This document shows, in pieces, positions 1 through 15,377 of a stretch of 15,377 bases of DNA. The notes beneath the pieces were generated by a model, which ran no database searches, was not told where the DNA came from, and saw only the letters and a list, made by a program, of their open reading frames with translations. The translations under genes were made by a program, and so were the position numbers. Source of the stretch: an uncultured Candidatus Saccharibacteria bacterium (GTDB taxonomy: Bacteria > Patescibacteriota > Minisyncoccia > UBA6257 > JACRHW01); assembly GCA_964388055.1 (NCBI GenBank), contig CAYLXU010000007.1:13661-29037 (forward strand). The letters are read 5' to 3'. The first letter of the stretch is position 1. Each line of letters opens with the position of its first letter.

Positions 1-104
1 GTGCAGGAGGGGAGCGTAGAAAGGGAAAAATGTTTCGCGTGAAACATTTTGGGTGCAGGAGGGGAGCGTAGAAAGGGAAAAATGTTTCGCGTGAAACATT
101 TTGG
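1..104. repeat. 52-bp tandem direct repeat. Two complete identical copies at 1-52 and 53-104. A third copy begins at 105 (gtg) and then diverges. The array may continue left of the window.
   Basis: Units 1-52 and 53-104 are identical (gtgcaggaggggagcgtagaaagggaaaaatgtttcgcgtgaaacattttgg). Each unit carries the near-palindrome ATGTTTC-gcgt-GAAACAT. Confidence 0.9.
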
Positions 105-194
105 GTGGATTTTGGTACCGTGAAACATGTTTCACAGTATGTGAAACATGTTGTCAATATATAAATGTTTCACATCTTATTAAGCAGGTTGTCA
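30..194. promoter_or_regulatory. Array A of GTGAAACA/TGTTTCAC operator-like sites. 30-47 and 82-99 are ATGTTTCgcgtGAAACAT. 120-135 is the perfect 16-bp palindrome GTGAAACATGTTTCAC. 141-149 is a GTGAAACAT half-site, followed by TTGTCAAT at 151-158. 165-173 is an ATGTTTCAC half-site. A second TTGTCAAT lies at 189-196.
   Basis: Direct reading. Eight half-sites fall within about 145 bp. An 8-mer would be expected less than once in 15 kb by chance. The architecture is shared with array B at 3980-4048. Confidence 0.6.
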
Positions 195-3754: not shown

Positions 3755-3979
3755 ACCCGGTTATTACAATTTCGATTCGTAAAACGACATTTTTAAATAG
3801 CTCATGTGTGATCTATACATAGTCGAGATTATAGCAAAAAATGGTGTTCTTCTCTGTGCGTGAGCGCATATCGAAGTTGTAAAACCAGGCATGCTGCAAT
3901 AAACACATATGATATAACACGAAGCCTATACACAAAACAAATCCCTTACCTACATACATAGATGAGGTACAAAGAAAAA

Positions 3980-4048
3980 ATGTTTCACGTGAAACATTTC
4001 GTGAAACATCTTGACAATGTGTTTCACAAAATGTGAAACATGTTTCAC
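3980..4048. promoter_or_regulatory. Array B of the same operator-like motif. 3980-3997 is the perfect 18-bp palindrome ATGTTTCACGTGAAACAT. 4001-4009 is GTGAAACAT, followed by TTGACAAT at 4011-4018. 4019-4027 is gTGTTTCAC. 4033-4048 is the perfect palindrome GTGAAACATGTTTCAC.
   Basis: Direct reading. Six half-sites fall in 69 bp. The layout half-site / TTGACAAT / inverted half-site / 16-bp palindrome matches array A. Confidence 0.6.
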
Positions 4049-4058
4049 GGCGCGGTAA

Positions 4059-5634: not shown

Positions 5635-5994
5635 TTATGTATCAACCTCTTTCTTTAAAAGATTAATAACCTTCTCTCGCAACCCATATTCTTCGGGAAT
5701 GCGACGCAGATAATATTGCAATGTTTCAATAAATTCATTTGTAGTCATAATAGCTTTACGCTCTTCCTTGGTAAAAAACTTCTGTAGTTTCCCGCGCGCT
5801 TCATCGATACACTGAATCACTTCATCGACTTGATACTCTTTTTCTCCCTCTCCGTGTATCACAGAAAGTATTTTAAGTTCCTTCTTTAAAGCATCGAAAG
5901 AGTCTATGCCTTGAAACGGTGCCTCTGTTTTCGTCGCCCCCACTGCTTCTTGTTGTCTCTTTGTAGAAGCAGGAATTTGTTTTGGTTGTTCCAT
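5635..5994 (-). CDS. Hypothetical protein (119 aa), acidic and hydrophilic.
   Basis: Complete ORF, terminated by the 5594-5624 hairpin. No SD and no recognisable motifs. It lies directly downstream (minus strand) of tRNA-Val and the structured element. Confidence 0.5.
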   Translation of the reverse strand: MEQPKQIPASTKRQQEAVGATKTEAPFQGIDSFDALKKELKILSVIHGEGEKEYQVDEVIQCIDEARGKLQKFFTKEERKAIMTTNEFIETLQYYLRRIPEEYGLREKVINLLKKEVDT

Positions 5995-10125: not shown

Positions 10126-10159
10126 TCTAACCAAACAATTTCTTACACAAAGCACCAAC

Positions 10160-10190
10160 CTTGTCAATATATCTTGTTTTATTTTTATGG
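10160..10190. promoter_or_regulatory. Divergent promoter region. The plus strand reads TTGTCAAT and the minus strand reads TTGACAA over the same 8 bp (10161-10168).
   Basis: The minus-strand TTGACA has a 16-17-nt spacer to a weak TAAGAA. The plus-strand TTGTCA lies about 70 nt upstream of the GGAGGTGG SD of the small ORF. The same TTGTCAAT word occurs at 151-158 and 189-196, and TTGACAAT at 4011-4018. Confidence 0.35.
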
Positions 10191-10234
10191 TTATGGCATG
10201 ACTAATACAGAACCTTGAACGGAGGTGGTCAAAC

Positions 10235-10480
10235 TTGAATACAGACGACCCGCTTGCGTCGTTGATTCTCCGCATAAGGACCATTGTGCTGATTTTTATA
10301 GCATTGTATGTAGCGCTCTATATTATAAGACACCAAATTACTCCCGCAGCACCTCAACCTACGCAAGAGGTAAAAATCCAGGCAACGACACCTGTAACCG
10401 AATTGCAGAAGGAGCCGGTCCAAAAACAAAAACCAGAAAAAACACAAACACCAAAGAAACAAAAGAAAAACCCCAGATAG
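10235..10480 (+). CDS. Small single-TM protein with a K/Q/P-rich C-terminal tail (81 aa). TTG start.
   Basis: Strong SD GGAGGTGG lies 6 nt before the TTG. A TM segment TIVLIFIALYVALYII is present. The stop falls in the loop of a perfect terminator hairpin. Confidence 0.5.
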   Translation: MNTDDPLASLILRIRTIVLIFIALYVALYIIRHQITPAAPQPTQEVKIQATTPVTELQKEPVQKQKPEKTQTPKKQKKNPR

Positions 10481-10490
10481 GGGTTTTTAA
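10464..10490. terminator. Bidirectional intrinsic terminator between the small ORF (+) and dcd (-).
   Basis: AAAAACCCC-agata-GGGGTTTTT (stem 10471-10474 paired with 10480-10483). Confidence 0.7.
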
Positions 10491-10509
10491 TTATCCACTT
10501 CCCACCTTT

Positions 10510-11175
10510 CTATTTTCCTACTTCCCGGTCTTGATACAGTCGTGGGAGCATCATGTCTGGCTTCCACGACTTTTTGAGCTTTTCAAAATCCTTCACATTC
10601 TGATACTTTCCATCTGACGCATAATCCTTTGCTGCAATCTCCTTTACATCAAAAAAAATAATCTGCGCGATACGACGCCCGACCACAAGCGGAATAGTAT
10701 AGTGTCTGGAATTATTTGTAATCTCCATCGTCCAGCGATTTACATAACCAACGTCTCCCCATCCCGCACACTTACACACCTCTATAAAATTCCTTCCAAG
10801 CGACGAACGTGCCTTCATCATTGTGGTAATAGTGCCACGCCCACCAATAAACTCATTCGTGTGCCCAAGTATCGTCTCCCCTGGCTCCAAAAGGATGACC
10901 CTATCTTCGGGAGCGATCCCCTTAAAATCAAAGTGCTTTAACACCTTTGCTGCCTTCTCCGCCTTAAAATGTTCCTTACCCCATACACGTTCTACGTGTT
11001 CCTTATTATATATGTTATATAAATGCACATAATTGTCCGGCCTCCTCTCGCGGAAAAAATATTCACCAAGCGATACGTCATAACTTGATGTCTTTAAATT
11101 TTCGGTCTGGTAGGGATCAATAACAATGTTCCCTTGCTCAATTGCTTGTAAAATCGCTTTATCACCTAGAGTCAT
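10510..11175 (-). CDS. dcd: dCTP deaminase family protein (Dcd/dUTPase fold), 221 aa.
   Basis: The N-terminus is Dcd-like (TLGDKAILQAIEQGNIVIDP...SYDVSLG). The ARSSLGR and GW.D.GY segments are conserved. There is no SD. Confidence 0.75.
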   Translation of the reverse strand: MTLGDKAILQAIEQGNIVIDPYQTENLKTSSYDVSLGEYFFRERRPDNYVHLYNIYNKEHVERVWGKEHFKAEKAAKVLKHFDFKGIAPEDRVILLEPGETILGHTNEFIGGRGTITTMMKARSSLGRNFIEVCKCAGWGDVGYVNRWTMEITNNSRHYTIPLVVGRRIAQIIFFDVKEIAAKDYASDGKYQNVKDFEKLKKSWKPDMMLPRLYQDREVGK

Positions 11176-11281
11176 AATTGTAGAAAATAAAAATTAGTAA
11201 CCAAAACTCAGAAATTTGAGTGTATTTTTTTAGACCACCTTCTTAAGTAAGCTTATCGGGTTTAGCTCTTGTCAGAAAGAC

Positions 11282-11310
11282 TTGACATATGTATATATAT
11301 GTGATACACT
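11282..11310 (+). promoter_or_regulatory. Sigma70 promoter for the GC-rich ORF. TTGACA (11282-11287), 17-nt spacer, TACACT (11305-11310).
   Basis: The hexamers and spacer were read directly. SD GGGGG lies at 11328-11332 and the ATG at 11343. Confidence 0.55.
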
Positions 11311-11342
11311 GTAACTAGCACACTGAAAGGGGGTTTGCAGCA

Positions 11343-11702
11343 ATGCAGACTACCAACAACTTCAAAGACATCTTCGGCTTCGAGCCAGCAAAAACGCAGG
11401 CAGCCACGCCGATCGAGACCAGCATCGTGAACTCCAAGCTCGGTGAACTCCTCTGCACGTACGACGGCTTGCACGAGGAGAAGCAGGCGCTCGTGGAGAA
11501 GTACCACGACGGTATTCCCAAGGGCATCAGCATCGAGCAGGCGCTCAAGGACCGAGAGGTCGCGCTCGATCTCGAGAAGAGAACGCGTGAAGCCTGGAAC
11601 GCTTTCGAGGGCTCAGGAAGCATGGCCAAGTCCGCTGGATATGCCGTGGATGACACCAACAAGCTTCGAGAGGACAACAAGAAGGCCACCGTCAACGCGT
11701 AA
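11343..11702 (+). CDS. Hypothetical small acidic protein (119 aa). Its composition (about 60% GC) and codon usage are anomalous, so it is probably horizontally acquired.
   Basis: GC counted at 36/60 for 11401-11460, against 33-42% in sampled flanking genes. Third codon positions are C/G-rich (AAG, GAG, ATC, CTC, GGC, GAC). It has its own promoter, SD and terminator. Other-frame ORFs here are Arg/Ser-rich artefacts. Confidence 0.65.
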   Translation: MQTTNNFKDIFGFEPAKTQAATPIETSIVNSKLGELLCTYDGLHEEKQALVEKYHDGIPKGISIEQALKDREVALDLEKRTREAWNAFEGSGSMAKSAGYAVDDTNKLREDNKKATVNA

Positions 11703-11710
11703 GGCCGCAA

Positions 11711-11746
11711 AGGCAGGGTAACCAACCCCTGCTTTTTCTTTTTTAT
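11711..11746 (+). terminator. Intrinsic terminator of the GC-rich ORF.
   Basis: GCAGGG-taaccaac-CCCTGC (11713-11732) followed by TTTTTCTTTTTTAT. Confidence 0.65.
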
Positions 11747-11891
11747 TCAAACTAAAGCCTAAACAAAACTCTGGGTGTATGCCGAGATATCTTCCACACC
11801 TAAACAACCCCCTACCCCCATTTTCTACTTTATAGGGACGTGCTATCCTAAATCCAGTTCGTTTACAGTATAATAGGAGGAATAAAAACAC

Positions 11892-12713
11892 ATGCGACAA
11901 TATCTCGACCTCCTCAAAGACATTCTAGAAAATGGCGTAGACCGTCCGGATCGTACAGGGGTGGGAAGCAGGGCAGTCTTTGGAAGACAGATGAGATTTG
12001 CTATGGCGGATGGATTTCCGGCAGTAACCACTAAAAAGTTGGCGTTTAAGTTAGTTAAAGCAGAACTTCTGTGGTTCCTTAGTGGAAGTTCCGACGTAAA
12101 CAAGCTCCGTGAACTTGGTTGCACAATTTGGGACGAAAATGCAGAAGCGCCCTATTGGAAACCAAAAGCGCGGTTTGAGGGAGACTTGGGACGAGTATAT
12201 GGGGTACAGTGGCGCTCATGGCGAACCCCCTCAGGAACAGAAGTTGATCAAATCGCCCAACTCATTGACCGCATAAAAACAAATCCACACGACAGACGCC
12301 ACATTGTAAACGCTTGGAATCCTGGCGAGTTAGACCAAATGGCGCTTCCACCATGCCATGCCTTCTTTCAATGTTTTGTAGTAAATGACACCATCTCGCT
12401 TCAAATGTATCAACGAAGCTGCGATATGTTTTTAGGCGTACCATTCAACATTGCCTCTTATTCGCTCTTGCTTCACATGATTGCACAAGTAACCGGATTA
12501 AAAGCAGGGGAGTTTGTCCATACTCTTGGGGACGCACATATCTACCTTGACCACTTTGATCAGGTCAAAGAACAACTCACTCGGGAACCCCTACCACTTC
12601 CGCAACTCTGGCTTAATCCAGACATCAAAGACTTGCACAATTTCACAATGGACGACATTAAGCTTATTGGATATAAAAGCCATGAAGGTATTAAAGCCCG
12701 AATGGCGGTATAA
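11892..12713 (+). CDS. thyA: Thymidylate synthase ThyA (273 aa).
   Basis: Canonical ThyA sequence throughout: MRQYLDLLKDILENG..DRTG.G..FG.QMRF....GFP..TTKK. The active-site region LPPCHAFFQ and the segment MYQRSCDMFLGVPFNIASYSLL are present. SD AGGAGG lies 11 nt upstream. Confidence 0.95.
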   Translation: MRQYLDLLKDILENGVDRPDRTGVGSRAVFGRQMRFAMADGFPAVTTKKLAFKLVKAELLWFLSGSSDVNKLRELGCTIWDENAEAPYWKPKARFEGDLGRVYGVQWRSWRTPSGTEVDQIAQLIDRIKTNPHDRRHIVNAWNPGELDQMALPPCHAFFQCFVVNDTISLQMYQRSCDMFLGVPFNIASYSLLLHMIAQVTGLKAGEFVHTLGDAHIYLDHFDQVKEQLTREPLPLPQLWLNPDIKDLHNFTMDDIKLIGYKSHEGIKARMAV

Positions 12714-12788
12714 CCTCACCTAAAGGGGTATTAAAAATCCGAACCCTCCCACGCCGAGGCTTTGGGGGGTGAATAAGGAGGAAAAACG

Positions 12789-13298
12789 ATGATCACCATC
12801 TCACTCGTTGCAGCAATGGCACACAACCGCATCATTGGGAATAAAAATAAACTTCCATGGAAACTCCCTGCAGACATGAAGCGCTTCAAGGAACTCACGC
12901 GAGGAAAAATTGTCATCATGGGAAGAAAAACATTCGAGTCGATTGGAAAACCCCTCCCTAATAGAACAAACATTGTCATCACATCACAAGATATCGAAAT
13001 TCCAGGATGTATCGTATCACGTGGCGGTGACGGACCATGGCTACGGGCACTCATTGCCCACCTCGATGGAGCGCCGGAAGAAGTGATGGTAATCGGAGGC
13101 GCCTCTGTCTATCAACAATTTCTTCCCAAAGCAGATCGCATTTATCTCACCTATATTGATGCTGAATTTGAAGGCGATGCAACGTTCCCCATCTTTGAGA
13201 ATCCAAACGTATGGGAAGAAACCGAACGAATAACATACGAGCCAGATGAGCAAAACCTTTACCCCTACACCTTCCTCACCTTTGAAAAAAGAAAATGA
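12789..13298 (+). CDS. folA: Dihydrofolate reductase FolA (169 aa).
   Basis: Canonical DHFR N-terminus (ISLVAAMAHNRIIG..NKLPW.LPADMKRFKELT.GK.VIMGRKTFESIG.PLP.R.NIV.TS). SD AAGGAGG is upstream. The gene follows thyA after 75 nt, so co-transcription is likely. Confidence 0.95.
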   Translation: MITISLVAAMAHNRIIGNKNKLPWKLPADMKRFKELTRGKIVIMGRKTFESIGKPLPNRTNIVITSQDIEIPGCIVSRGGDGPWLRALIAHLDGAPEEVMVIGGASVYQQFLPKADRIYLTYIDAEFEGDATFPIFENPNVWEETERITYEPDEQNLYPYTFLTFEKRK

Positions 13299-13309
13299 TA
13301 AACAAAAAA

Positions 13310-13340
13310 CCAAAAAGCCGCCCACAGGCGGCCTTTTACT
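13310..13340 (+). terminator. Intrinsic terminator after folA.
   Basis: GCCGCC-caca-GGCGGC (13317-13332) followed by CTTTTACTT. Confidence 0.55.
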
Positions 13341-13412
13341 TGTCTACGGATGTATGACATATCATACATTTAGTTGATACTCTTTTTTCTTATTTCAATT
13401 TACAATAAAATT

Positions 13413-13889
13413 ATGAAAACATATTCGATTATGATTGGCGGAGTTGCGACCCTCATCACTCTTTTCATTGTTTTTGCGAGCAACACTGGAGATAGTACGT
13501 CACCACACACCGCTCAACAGTCCAAAGTCACAATCGGGTCAACAACCATTTCTGTTGAAATCGCACGCACGCCGCAGGAACGCGCACAGGGGTTGTCACA
13601 CCGCACATCCCTCGATGAAAACAGGGGAATGTTATTTTTATTTGAAAAACCAGATCTTTATGCGTTCTGGATGCCAAACATGAAATTTCCAATCGACATT
13701 ATTTGGATTGATACAAATAACACCATTGTCGATATACATGAAAATGTTCCCCCATTACAGAACGAACTTTACCCCACATATTATAAACCACAACATCCCG
13801 CGATTTCAGTTCTTGAAGTCAACGCGGGATTTGGAAAACGACACAACATCAAAACAGGAGACAAAATCATATTCAATGCTCCAAATTAA
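13413..13889 (+). CDS. DUF192-domain protein with an N-terminal signal anchor (about 158 aa from the ATG at 13413). The ORF track's TTG at 13374 is an alternative start.
   Basis: DUF192 hallmarks: TPQERAQGL, GMLFLF, FWMPNMKFPIDIIWID, VLEVNAGF, IKTGDKI. The hydrophobic N-terminus is IMIGGVATLITLFIVFA. Confidence 0.75.
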   Translation: MKTYSIMIGGVATLITLFIVFASNTGDSTSPHTAQQSKVTIGSTTISVEIARTPQERAQGLSHRTSLDENRGMLFLFEKPDLYAFWMPNMKFPIDIIWIDTNNTIVDIHENVPPLQNELYPTYYKPQHPAISVLEVNAGFGKRHNIKTGDKIIFNAPN

Positions 13890-13916
13890 AAAAACATGCA
13901 CGTGCATGTTTTTTAT
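13887..13916. terminator. Bidirectional intrinsic terminator between the convergent DUF192 gene and the small 2-TM ORF.
   Basis: AAAAAA-ACATGCACGTGCATGT-TTTTT. The perfect palindrome at 13893-13910 is flanked by A-runs and T-runs. Confidence 0.7.
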
Positions 13917-14161
13917 TAGGACAATATTGATGCCATAAACAATTGAATAGTTGCGCAAAAAAGCCATGTTCCGGCAGCGAAAAAGGCCACCCAACTCCCC
14001 TTAAGAGCATCGAGTCCATAATTAACAGAGGCGATTATACAGACAGTCCCCGCAAGAACGTGAATCACAAAACTGCTTTCCCAAAAAAGCGGAATAAGAC
14101 AAACGAGAGCGGCAGCAAAACCAAAAAAAGTCGATTCTGTCCTAATCTTATCTTCTTGCAT
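13916..14161 (-). CDS. Small membrane protein with two predicted TM helices (81 aa).
   Basis: Excellent SD AAAAAGGAGGTG lies 6 nt before the ATG. Hydrophobic segments AAALVCLIPLFW and VAFFAAGTWLFCATIQLFMASIL are present. It is divergent from the amidase gene. Confidence 0.6.
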   Translation of the reverse strand: MQEDKIRTESTFFGFAAALVCLIPLFWESSFVIHVLAGTVCIIASVNYGLDALKGSWVAFFAAGTWLFCATIQLFMASILS

Positions 14162-14194
14162 AAAGCACCTCCTTTTTAAGATGAACTAACAAAA

Positions 14195-14223
14195 TATATA
14201 TCACACGTGTTGACTTGTGTAAA
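14195..14223 (-). promoter_or_regulatory. Candidate promoter for the small 2-TM ORF. TTTACA (rc of 14218-14223), 17-nt spacer, TATATA (rc of 14195-14200).
   Basis: Read directly. It interleaves with the amidase promoter on the other strand. Confidence 0.45.
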
Positions 14224-14238
14224 TGAAACAGGGATAAT
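14210..14238 (+). promoter_or_regulatory. Sigma70 promoter for the amidase gene. TTGACT (14210-14215), 17-nt spacer, GATAAT (14233-14238).
   Basis: Hexamers at 5/6 and 5/6 of consensus with an exact 17-nt spacer. It lies about 27 nt upstream of the GTG start. Confidence 0.6.
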
Positions 14239-14264
14239 GATCCATCGTACATTCACAACCAGAG

Positions 14265-15170
14265 GTGAGATATGTGAAACGCAACATTCTGATAAGCGTT
14301 GTTCTTTTGCTTACGTGTTGTATGGGAGTCATCGCAAAAATACGGCATTGCCCCACAGAACCTGAAATTAAACTTGAAATCCAAAGGCAGAAGACAGCCG
14401 TTGCCGTACTACGTGCAAAAATAAAACAAACTTCCTCACTAAGAAACTATTACGTTGTGATAGATCCGGGGCACGGAGACGGTGACCCTGGAGCAATAAG
14501 AGACGTAGAAATCAAAAAGAATACAACTATTTCTGTATCTGAAAGTGTTCTTACCCTTGACATCTCGCGACGTCTTGCGTGGAATCTTAGGCAACATGGT
14601 TGCAATATCTTCATGACATTGGGTCCCACAACGATTACAGAGGCACAAGATACATACGCCTTCTGGCACCCCTTCTCACCACCATTTATATTAAAAGAGC
14701 TTAAGCCCCTTCTTTCTCCCTCTCCGTATGCATATACCCCACTTGAGCAAGCACTCACCACACGAACAGAGGTGGCAAACCAAAAAGTACGGAGGTTTGG
14801 AAAGAGAAAAGTTCTTTTTACCTCAATACACGTAGACTCTACAACCTCTTCCGTAAGCGGCATGCGAATCTATTCATATTATGGGACAAGATCTCATCTC
14901 AGTGACACGCTTGCCAAAACCGCAAAAGAAAAGAAGATGGCAAGAGTTAAAAGGGTCGGAAACAAAGAGTTCCCATTTTTTTCAAGCCTCAAATCCGGTT
15001 TTATAGTGATCAACCCAGACTTTAATTACGCACAAGATAAGGTCCTGATAGAAACCGCGAACATCAGAAACGATGCAGACTTCAAGCTCCTTTGCACAGC
15101 TGAGGGAAGAGAGCGTATTGCACAAACCATCGCGGAAGGAATCATCCTTTATGTCTCAAAAAAACGATAA
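14265..15170 (+). CDS. N-acetylmuramoyl-L-alanine amidase (Amidase_3 family, AmiC/CwlC-like) with an N-terminal signal or anchor sequence (301 aa). The start is either GTG 14265 or GTG 14274.
   Basis: Zn-amidase signature YVVIDPGHGDGDPGA at the start of the catalytic domain. LFTSIHVDS is the family's second conserved metal-binding segment. A hydrophobic N-terminus ILISVVLLLTCCMGVIA is present. SD AGAGGTGAG overlaps 14261-14269, which favours the GTG at 14274 as the true start. Confidence 0.8.
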   Translation: MRYVKRNILISVVLLLTCCMGVIAKIRHCPTEPEIKLEIQRQKTAVAVLRAKIKQTSSLRNYYVVIDPGHGDGDPGAIRDVEIKKNTTISVSESVLTLDISRRLAWNLRQHGCNIFMTLGPTTITEAQDTYAFWHPFSPPFILKELKPLLSPSPYAYTPLEQALTTRTEVANQKVRRFGKRKVLFTSIHVDSTTSSVSGMRIYSYYGTRSHLSDTLAKTAKEKKMARVKRVGNKEFPFFSSLKSGFIVINPDFNYAQDKVLIETANIRNDADFKLLCTAEGRERIAQTIAEGIILYVSKKR

Positions 15171-15225
15171 TCTCGGCAATCCCGAGATTTTTAATTTTTA
15201 CATTAAATATGCTAAGGTGTGGTCA

Positions 15226-15377
15226 TGGAAAAAGAAAACATTCCTATTATTCTTACCACGCATCCGTCAGCGGATTATGAACTAATCGACAGCGGTAACA
15301 ACGAAAAATTGGAACGCTATGGTCAGGTTATTTTACGCCGCCCGGACCCGCAAGCGCTATGGCACAAAACAAATGAG
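15226..15377 (+). CDS. 5' end of a gene that runs off the window (first 50 codons, MEKENIPIILTTHPSADYELIDSGNNEKLERYGQVILRRPDPQALWHKTNE...). Function unassigned.
   Basis: ATG at 15226 is preceded by SD AAGGTG with a 7-nt spacer. The frame is open to the window end. Fifty residues are too few for a family call. Confidence 0.45.

Follow-up and report, generated by a model that had tools for sequence, protein, structure and literature searches.

The window analysed here, a stretch of 15,377 nucleotides of DNA, carries two repeat clusters, arrays A and B, which are very probably clusters of chromosomal parS, the predicted ParB (Spo0J) loading sites of a Parcubacteria (CPR) bacterium. This identification draws on the match to the parS consensus, on the presence of a ParB gene nearby in the same species, and on the conservation of the sites at the same positions in relatives. 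A centromere-like, parS-type site had been the third alternative listed in a first-pass annotation of this DNA, and it is the one that the parS match, the ParB and the conservation bear out. The locus is an element of an ordinary type with a somewhat unusual, plasmid-like tandem layout, to which conserved accessory elements are added. The coordinates of all features are collected in Table 1.

Table 1. Features of the parS locus and of related contigs. Positions refer to the window unless a contig is named.
Feature	Position	Strand	Remarks
Tandem array A	1-107	.	At least 2.06 identical 52-bp units; left end off window edge; detected by TRF
parS-like site TGTTTCGCGTGAAACA	31-46	.	One mismatch vs consensus
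parS-like site TGTTTCGCGTGAAACA	83-98	.	One mismatch vs consensus
Everted half-site pair GTGAAACA|TGTTTCAC = GTGAAACATGTTTCAC	120-135	.	Not a parS
Inverted half-sites GTGAAACA (141-148) and TGTTTCAC (166-173)	141-173	minus	17 bp between; TTGACAA box within (157-152, minus)
Second TTGACA-N15-TGTGAAAC composite	166-195	minus	TTGACA at 195-190
Intrinsic terminator of ligase gene	212-229	minus	Locus boundary, outside the centromere
ATP-dependent DNA ligase gene	240-1229	minus	Array A lies 3' of it, beyond terminator 212-229
Perfect canonical parS TGTTTCACGTGAAACA, array B	3981-3996	.	No mismatches
Paralogue of array A module, in array B	4001-4048	plus	Half-sites, TTGACA, everted pair
TTGAC(A/G)-N14/15-TGTGAAAC composites	195-166, 157-120; 4011-4040	minus; plus	
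Same-type composites TTGAC(A/G)-N14/15-TGTGAAAC	L068 3532, 3570; L068 3896	plus; minus	
Same-type composites TTGAC(A/G)-N14/15-TGTGAAAC	L076 296; L079 237		
DnaA box TTATCCACA	L068 3751-3759; L079 123-131; L082, L080 and L084 29-37; L083 1058-1066		
parB (P0123, 405 aa)	L074 8959-10176		ParB_N, HTH_ParB and ParB_C domains

Array A has a period of 52 bp, 2.1 copies and 100% identity according to TRF, and the two identical units that had been reported before fill positions 1-104. Each unit consists of a 24-bp A4-parS-T4 block and a 28-bp linker that is G-rich on the plus strand, and each contains ATGTTTC-GCGT-GAAACAT once (30-47 and 82-99), in agreement with the ATGTTTC-N4-GAAACAT element described earlier. 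The palindrome, the half-sites and the repeated word to the right of the units (120-135, 141-173 and 189-196) were likewise found where they had been placed, and the motifs in this part of the array include GTGAAACAT (141-149), TTGTCAAT (151-158 and 189-196) and ATGTTTCAC (165-173). Array B, the second cluster of the word, spans 3976-4050; its module reads, in order, GTGAAACA (4001-4008), TTGACA (4011-4016), TGTTTCAC (4020-4027) and GTGAAACATGTTTCAC (4033-4048). A CRISPR array was considered and rejected, the segments between palindromes being identical within each array and no cas genes being seen, as was an RNA gene, for which Rfam matches reached only E ~0.9 and the hairpins were the palindromes themselves.

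The abundance of the repeated word is far beyond chance, as had been claimed. The window contains 12 copies of TGAAACAT, where 1.14 would be expected and none of 200 shuffles gives as many; six copies lie in 40-172, five in 3980-4047 and one, a stray, at 5721. Overall, the half-site 8-mers appear at about ten times their chance frequency. The earlier figure of eight copies near the left edge holds for six exact half-sites, while the remaining two are TGTTTCGC variants. Over 23.1 kb, comprising the window and its extension on contig L074 (see below), 12 of the 14 GTTTCAC/GTGAAAC 7-mers lie inside the two clusters, which jointly occupy less than 300 bp, and composition predicts 2.9 over this length; no half-sites were found in the 13 kb of L074. 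Isolated half-sites usually have A as the next base, giving TGTTTCACA.

The sequence TGTTTCAC|GTGAAACA is the canonical chromosomal parS palindrome. Its consensus, TGTTTCACGTGAAACA, is tabulated in a review of ParB proteins, for example for Hyphomonas neptunium, and ParB binds the heptamer half-parS GTTTCAC (PMC7022226). The site in array B matches at 16 of 16 positions and those in array A at 15 of 16, all three within the zero to two mismatches of parS family members, and only 0.14 matches with up to three mismatches would be expected in the window. The array A sites, TGTTTCGCGTGAAACA, are the reverse complement of TGTTTCACGCGAAACA, the clade-typical parS variant. The motif had previously been centred on TGAAAC-AT-GTTTCA; the informative palindrome is instead TGTTTCAC-GTGAAACA, that is, parS. 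The 16-mer GTGAAACATGTTTCAC, present at 120-135 and 4033-4048, contains both parS half-sites in everted order, and no mention of it was found in a literature search.

The window is a piece of Parcubacteria chromosome, with genes for MurC, a fused MFS/spermidine synthase, a flotillin, Dcd, ThyA, FolA, a DUF192 protein and an amidase, and rplS also lies near the locus, which together with murC, thyA, folA and dcd defines a chromosomal context. The position of array A just 3' of an ATP-dependent DNA ligase gene, as annotated in the first pass, was verified. In this species alone, the ligase gene and that of a 307-aa protein (no Pfam hit), at 240-2302, separate murC from the array; relatives have a small gene of ~120 aa in their place, and the 240-2302 segment looks like a lineage-specific insertion beside the centromere. 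Elsewhere in the window, an A/C-rich tandem repeat of 16-18 bp (~2.5 copies, 82% identity) lies at 10422-10472, between a gene for a 234-aa protein and dcd.

The candidate cognate ParB was reached through a relative. MurC is 78% identical to its counterpart on the Parcubacteria MAG contig JACRHW010000007.1 (L002), which encodes a full ParB (ParB_N, HTH_ParB and ParB_C) 6-8 kb from its own motif clusters, and a homologue search with this ParB recovered P0123. The contig of P0123, L074, overlaps window positions 10153-15377 with 99.4% identity over 5,229 bp, and therefore belongs to the same species; it extends the window rightwards by 7.8 kb. The P0123 gene lies ~3.7 kb past the right window edge; its distance to array A is ~19 kb and that to array B ~15 kb. 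The earlier remark that the window lacks a gene for a cognate regulator is thus literally true but misleading.

P0123 aligns with Thermus Spo0J at E = 1.7e-43 and contains the GERR motif. At the four positions that define parS versus Noc specificity (PMC7383237), namely 173, 179, 184 and 201, it carries R, T, Q and S. The parS-contacting Arg (R173 equivalent) is retained where Noc has Gln, and no position shows its Noc-type residue (Q, K, K and R, respectively); the L002 homologue is alike in this. The residue equivalent to G201 is Ser and not Gly, so that the exact specificity of P0123 is only inferred. Judged by its residues, P0123 looks like a standard parS-binding ParB, which gives this genome a predicted cognate three-domain GERR protein with parS-type residues. 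Its gene sits between Sua5/TsaC and RelA/SpoT, and no parA was found beside parB in L073, L074 or L076.

The ParB proteins of the clade (L074 8959-10176, P0123; L076 8752-10023, P0121; L073 9846-11033, P0124) have a low-complexity N-terminal extension of 85-125 aa rich in N, Q, P, E and Y, in which no LG(R/K)GL-type ParA-stimulating peptide was seen by eye. As an extra DNA-binding domain reading TTGACA this extension was rejected, being of low complexity, without a Pfam hit and apparently disordered. Among the ParB homologues P0125-P0145, many Parcubacteria members are 620-710 aa long and also match PF00483 in precomputed Pfam assignments. In the relatives, the genes past RelA include topA, dprA, a Y1 transposase and a T4SS-pilin-like gene row (L076 12803-20023; L073 13494-20431).

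A parS cluster is located directly upstream of murC in six of six related genome types (L002/L076, L066, L067/L068, L070, L071/L072 and L073), whose MurC proteins are 75-80% identical where scored; L073 was recovered via ParB, 68% identical. The orthologous site is a parS or a one-mismatch parS, and the usual form of the cluster is GTGAAACA-tttt-GTGAAACATGTTTCACGCGAAACA. Sites that are few, non-random and kept at orthologous positions, as expected of parS, are what the sequences compared here display, with parB 5-8 kb from the clusters in the relatives. In L071 (3373-3440) and L072 (412-479), a 31-bp insertion splits the everted pair upstream of murC and leaves the adjoining one-mismatch parS intact.

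The module and the 52-bp array are found downstream of murC in relatives with MurC 78-80% identical. Homologous arrays were identified in L002/L076, L066, L067, L068, L079 and L083: the L002 array has at least four units and reaches the contig end, that of L066 carries a perfect parS, that of L068 comprises three units fully spanned by the contig, L083 has an N-gap within the array, and L079 represents the far side of the JACRHW MAG array. At this position the array is absent from the more distant relatives L070 and L073, and is therefore not a necessity for the clade. A strain-specific insertion, which the first-pass annotation had proposed to recognise by absence from close relatives, does not fit this distribution, the array being present in other samples of the same species and in the relatives with MurC 78-80% identical, and absent from two distant ones. 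Between the window and the relatives, the A4-parS-T4 block is identical at 22-24 of 24 positions and the linker at 13-14 of 28 (~50%), the period is exactly 52 bp in all relatives compared, and the invariant columns of an alignment of the window with four relatives (A1) are the half-sites, the parS sites and the two TTGAC boxes. By this block and linker comparison, the palindrome is under purifying selection while the linker drifts.

The tandem repeat itself is real and not an artefact of assembly. Two Logan assemblies of the species made independently, L001 (100% identical) and L078 (99.8%), break off at the same window base, 78, inside the array, as expected when a true tandem repeat forms a cycle in a de Bruijn graph. 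Every short-read assembly breaks at the array, and the window begins inside it because the repeat breaks assembly there; the size of the array in the window species is consequently a lower bound of at least 2.06 units. L078, which ends where L001 ends, was found via the cluster representative P0242, and exact-protein look-ups with the ligase, DHFR and the 307-aa protein returned short Logan contigs or nothing. A search with the gene beyond the L068 array recovered the far side in relatives (L079-L084) and not in the window species.

These observations bear on a reading in which the arrays have no dedicated function and are either an artefact of assembly or a MITE- or REP-like repeat of selfish or structural nature. 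Contig breaks at the array in each short-read assembly would agree with it, as would the ~30-bp near-identical inverted repeats that flank the JACRHW MAG array and the duplication of the module between arrays A and B in the window species. We nevertheless consider it highly improbable, given that both loci are the same in species with MurC 75-80% identical, that no further copies were found in ~130 kb of clade sequence, that selection maintains the palindrome against a drifting linker, and that identical break points in independent read sets point to a genuine tandem repeat.

In addition to the parS sites, the clusters contain accessory elements in fixed arrangements. The composite TTGACA-N15-TGTGAAAC occurs twice in array A, on the minus strand, and once in array B; the first composite of array A joins TTGACA at 157-152 to the half-site at 120-127 and is aimed into the array. 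In the relatives, two composites lie on the murC side and one, inverted, on the far side, all of them facing the array. The left and right flank composites of the JACRHW MAG are near-identical 29-mers, and the array is thereby bracketed by inverted repeats. Everted half-site pairs were absent from 62 IMG/VR loci with paired parS. Everted pairs, inverted half-sites spaced by 17 bp and TTGACA boxes all lie outside standard ParB dimer binding; the isolated and everted half-sites, together with the TTGACA boxes, are conserved accessory elements, the simplest guess as to their role being weak binding of half-sites by ParB.

The composite was also evaluated as a canonical promoter and rejected, since it lacks a -10 element at promoter spacing. 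No TATAAT occurs 16-18 nt after the TTGACA boxes, and a promoter scan returned 4 promoter-like sites against 9.8 expected, none of which pairs TTGACA with a -10 hexamer. A perfect extended -10 element, TGCTATAAT, is located at 3828-3836 (minus strand), ~75 nt upstream of the stand-alone murC, and the organism therefore uses canonical sigma-70 -10 elements. By eye, an ECF-sigma -35 (TGAAAC-N16-CGTA) was discarded for want of a CGT at the required spacing, and an IHF site at TTGTCAA as a poor match.

The absence of a -10 element is also relevant to the proposal, made in the first pass, of a LacI/Cra- or LexA-like operator. In its full form, the arrays would be an operator bank on TGAAAC-AT-GTTTCA for a LacI/Cra-, LexA- or Xre-type factor controlling neighbouring promoters. 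LacI-family operators have a central CG, and the regulator usually carries its own box. By our own comparison, the everted palindrome has the 14-bp LacI-family shape TG-AA---TT-CA, TTGACA boxes lie among the sites, and the L002 cluster abuts the murC start codon; however, the centre of the palindrome is AT and not the typical CG, neither the window nor its 7.8-kb extension codes for a regulator of the LacI, LexA or Xre type, and the TTGACA boxes stand without a -10 at promoter spacing, murC having a perfect TGCTATAAT. The Gram-positive LexA (Cheo) box GAAC-N4-GTTC does not match either, the sequences here being GAAAC-AT-GTTTC and GTTTCAC-GTGAAAC. Moreover, an insertion of 31 bp between the everted halves is tolerated in L071 and L072, and the properly oriented palindrome is an exact parS with a predicted cognate ParB nearby. 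An operator function is, in our judgement, scarcely credible, and the half-sites are better described as forming canonical parS.

A further conserved element is a perfect DnaA box, TTATCCACA, 2 nt past the last parS unit, invariant wherever the far side is visible in relatives. parS sites are usually origin-proximal, and the relaxed DnaA box consensus is TTWTNCACA. A replication origin (oriC) or plasmid-type iterons, in which the repeats would be initiator-binding sites, might account for the tandem direct repeats, for the conservation of the perfect DnaA box in L068, L079, L080, L082, L083 and L084, and for the isolated half-sites, which mostly read TGTTTCACA and differ from the relaxed box at one position. 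Against this, GC skew is negative on either flank of the JACRHW MAG array (-0.136 over 11.5 kb and -0.123 over 20 kb) and likewise throughout 23 kb of the window species, so the site of the DnaA box is probably not oriC. There is a single good DnaA box and no cluster, no dnaA, dnaN or rep gene within 10-20 kb, the genes adjoining the array are mostly transcribed towards it, and the repeat core is exactly parS. An iteron region or origin is marked by an initiator gene, a box cluster, an AT-rich unwinding element and a skew switch; of these, the initiator gene, the box cluster and the skew switch were not found at the locus. Consequently, we judge an origin very unlikely, and the plasmid- or phage-type iterons suggested earlier find no Rep gene in the window and its extension and no skew flip in the related MAG. 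The checks of GC skew, dnaA and parAB proximity that had been recommended gave no skew flip, no dnaA near and a parB ~19 kb from array A; neither a dnaA gene nor a GC-skew switch occurs within ~35 kb, in a sample that includes no complete genome.

With the arrays read as parS clusters, a mechanism can be proposed from established ParB biochemistry. ParB dimers would recognise each 16-bp palindrome via their helix-turn-helix domains; once loaded, ParB would bind CTP, close into a sliding clamp and spread on the flanking DNA around murC, and this spreading would give rise to a partition complex by which this part of the chromosome is organised and segregated. In the tandem array, loading sites would recur every 52 bp, or about five helical turns, and the array may act as a high-capacity loader like sopC. 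A more elaborate version, which we hold to be rather unlikely, regards the locus as a clade-specific composite centromere that is more than stacked parS sites. Here, a phased tandem parS loader would be bracketed by inward-facing TTGAC(A/G)-N14/15-TGTGAAACAT elements, which would bind ParB in a non-clamping manner, or a second protein, and would confine or anchor the ParB clamps; through the DnaA box, ParB loading would be tied to DnaA, by titration or by initiation control; and all this would take place in a lineage where the ParB N-terminus is long and apparently disordered and no ParA partner is seen.

As a parS cluster, the locus would mark the segregation centromere of an uncultivated CPR lineage, and no published account of parS in CPR or Patescibacteria turned up in a literature search. 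It provides a concrete candidate ParB-parS pair, P0123 with TGTTTCACG[T/C]GAAACA, and the tandem parS array explains the assembly breaks at the locus in these genomes. If the accessory elements are functional, this would be a chromosomal centromere built up like a plasmid centromere; otherwise, it is an expected element and not a new regulator or operator system.

The locus can be compared with several known systems. The parS of plasmid P1 combines box A heptamers (ATTTCAC-like) and box B hexamers in mixed orientations. The present locus resembles it in having several half-site-like boxes in varied orientations and a second conserved short motif, although that motif is TTGACA and no IHF site was recognised here. 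Isolated heptamer half-sites of the same kind are known from Pseudomonas aeruginosa, whose ParB binds half-parS GTTTCAC/GTTCCAC (PMC7022226); there, hundreds are scattered over the genome, whereas here they are few, packed beside full parS, and held in arrangements conserved between species, such as everted pairs and pairs spaced by 17 bp.

Phages of the phi29 family carry parS sites and exploit the host Spo0J (PMC2731898). In 62 IMG/VR loci, two parS lie 20-50 bp apart, with arrays of up to 8 sites, several of them on phi29-like contigs, which is consistent with the known phi29 sites (PMC2731898). Three of these contigs (L024, L029 and L032, with Phi29_MCP, gp9 and gp16 Pfam matches) have four tandem canonical parS at 26-55 bp spacing, and L055 has eight at 38-63 bp, five of them 38 bp apart. 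Such close or tandem canonical sites, spaced by 26-63 bp, resemble array A, but they belong to phages that hijack host ParB and come without everted pairs (0 of 62) or TTGACA composites. The sopC centromere of the F plasmid, where SopB binds a 16-bp inverted repeat in every one of 12 direct 43-bp repeats (PMC3177203), shares the head-to-tail units with one 16-bp palindrome each for a ParB-family protein. In contrast, the present array is chromosomal, has 52-bp units, uses parS and not the sopC motif, and does not adjoin a parAB operon; the tandem form of a sopC-type plasmid centromere is therefore present without its plasmid and parAB context, and the locus does not belong to that class. Relative to chromosomal parS/ParB (Spo0J) systems (PMC7022226), it departs in that the sites form partly an exact 52-bp tandem array and not dispersed single sites, in that the asymmetric variant TGTTTCACGCGAAACA predominates, and in that no parA stands beside parB. 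In common with those systems, it has the identical 16-bp palindrome, a GERR three-domain ParB nearby, and sites that are few, clustered and within ~20 kb of parB.
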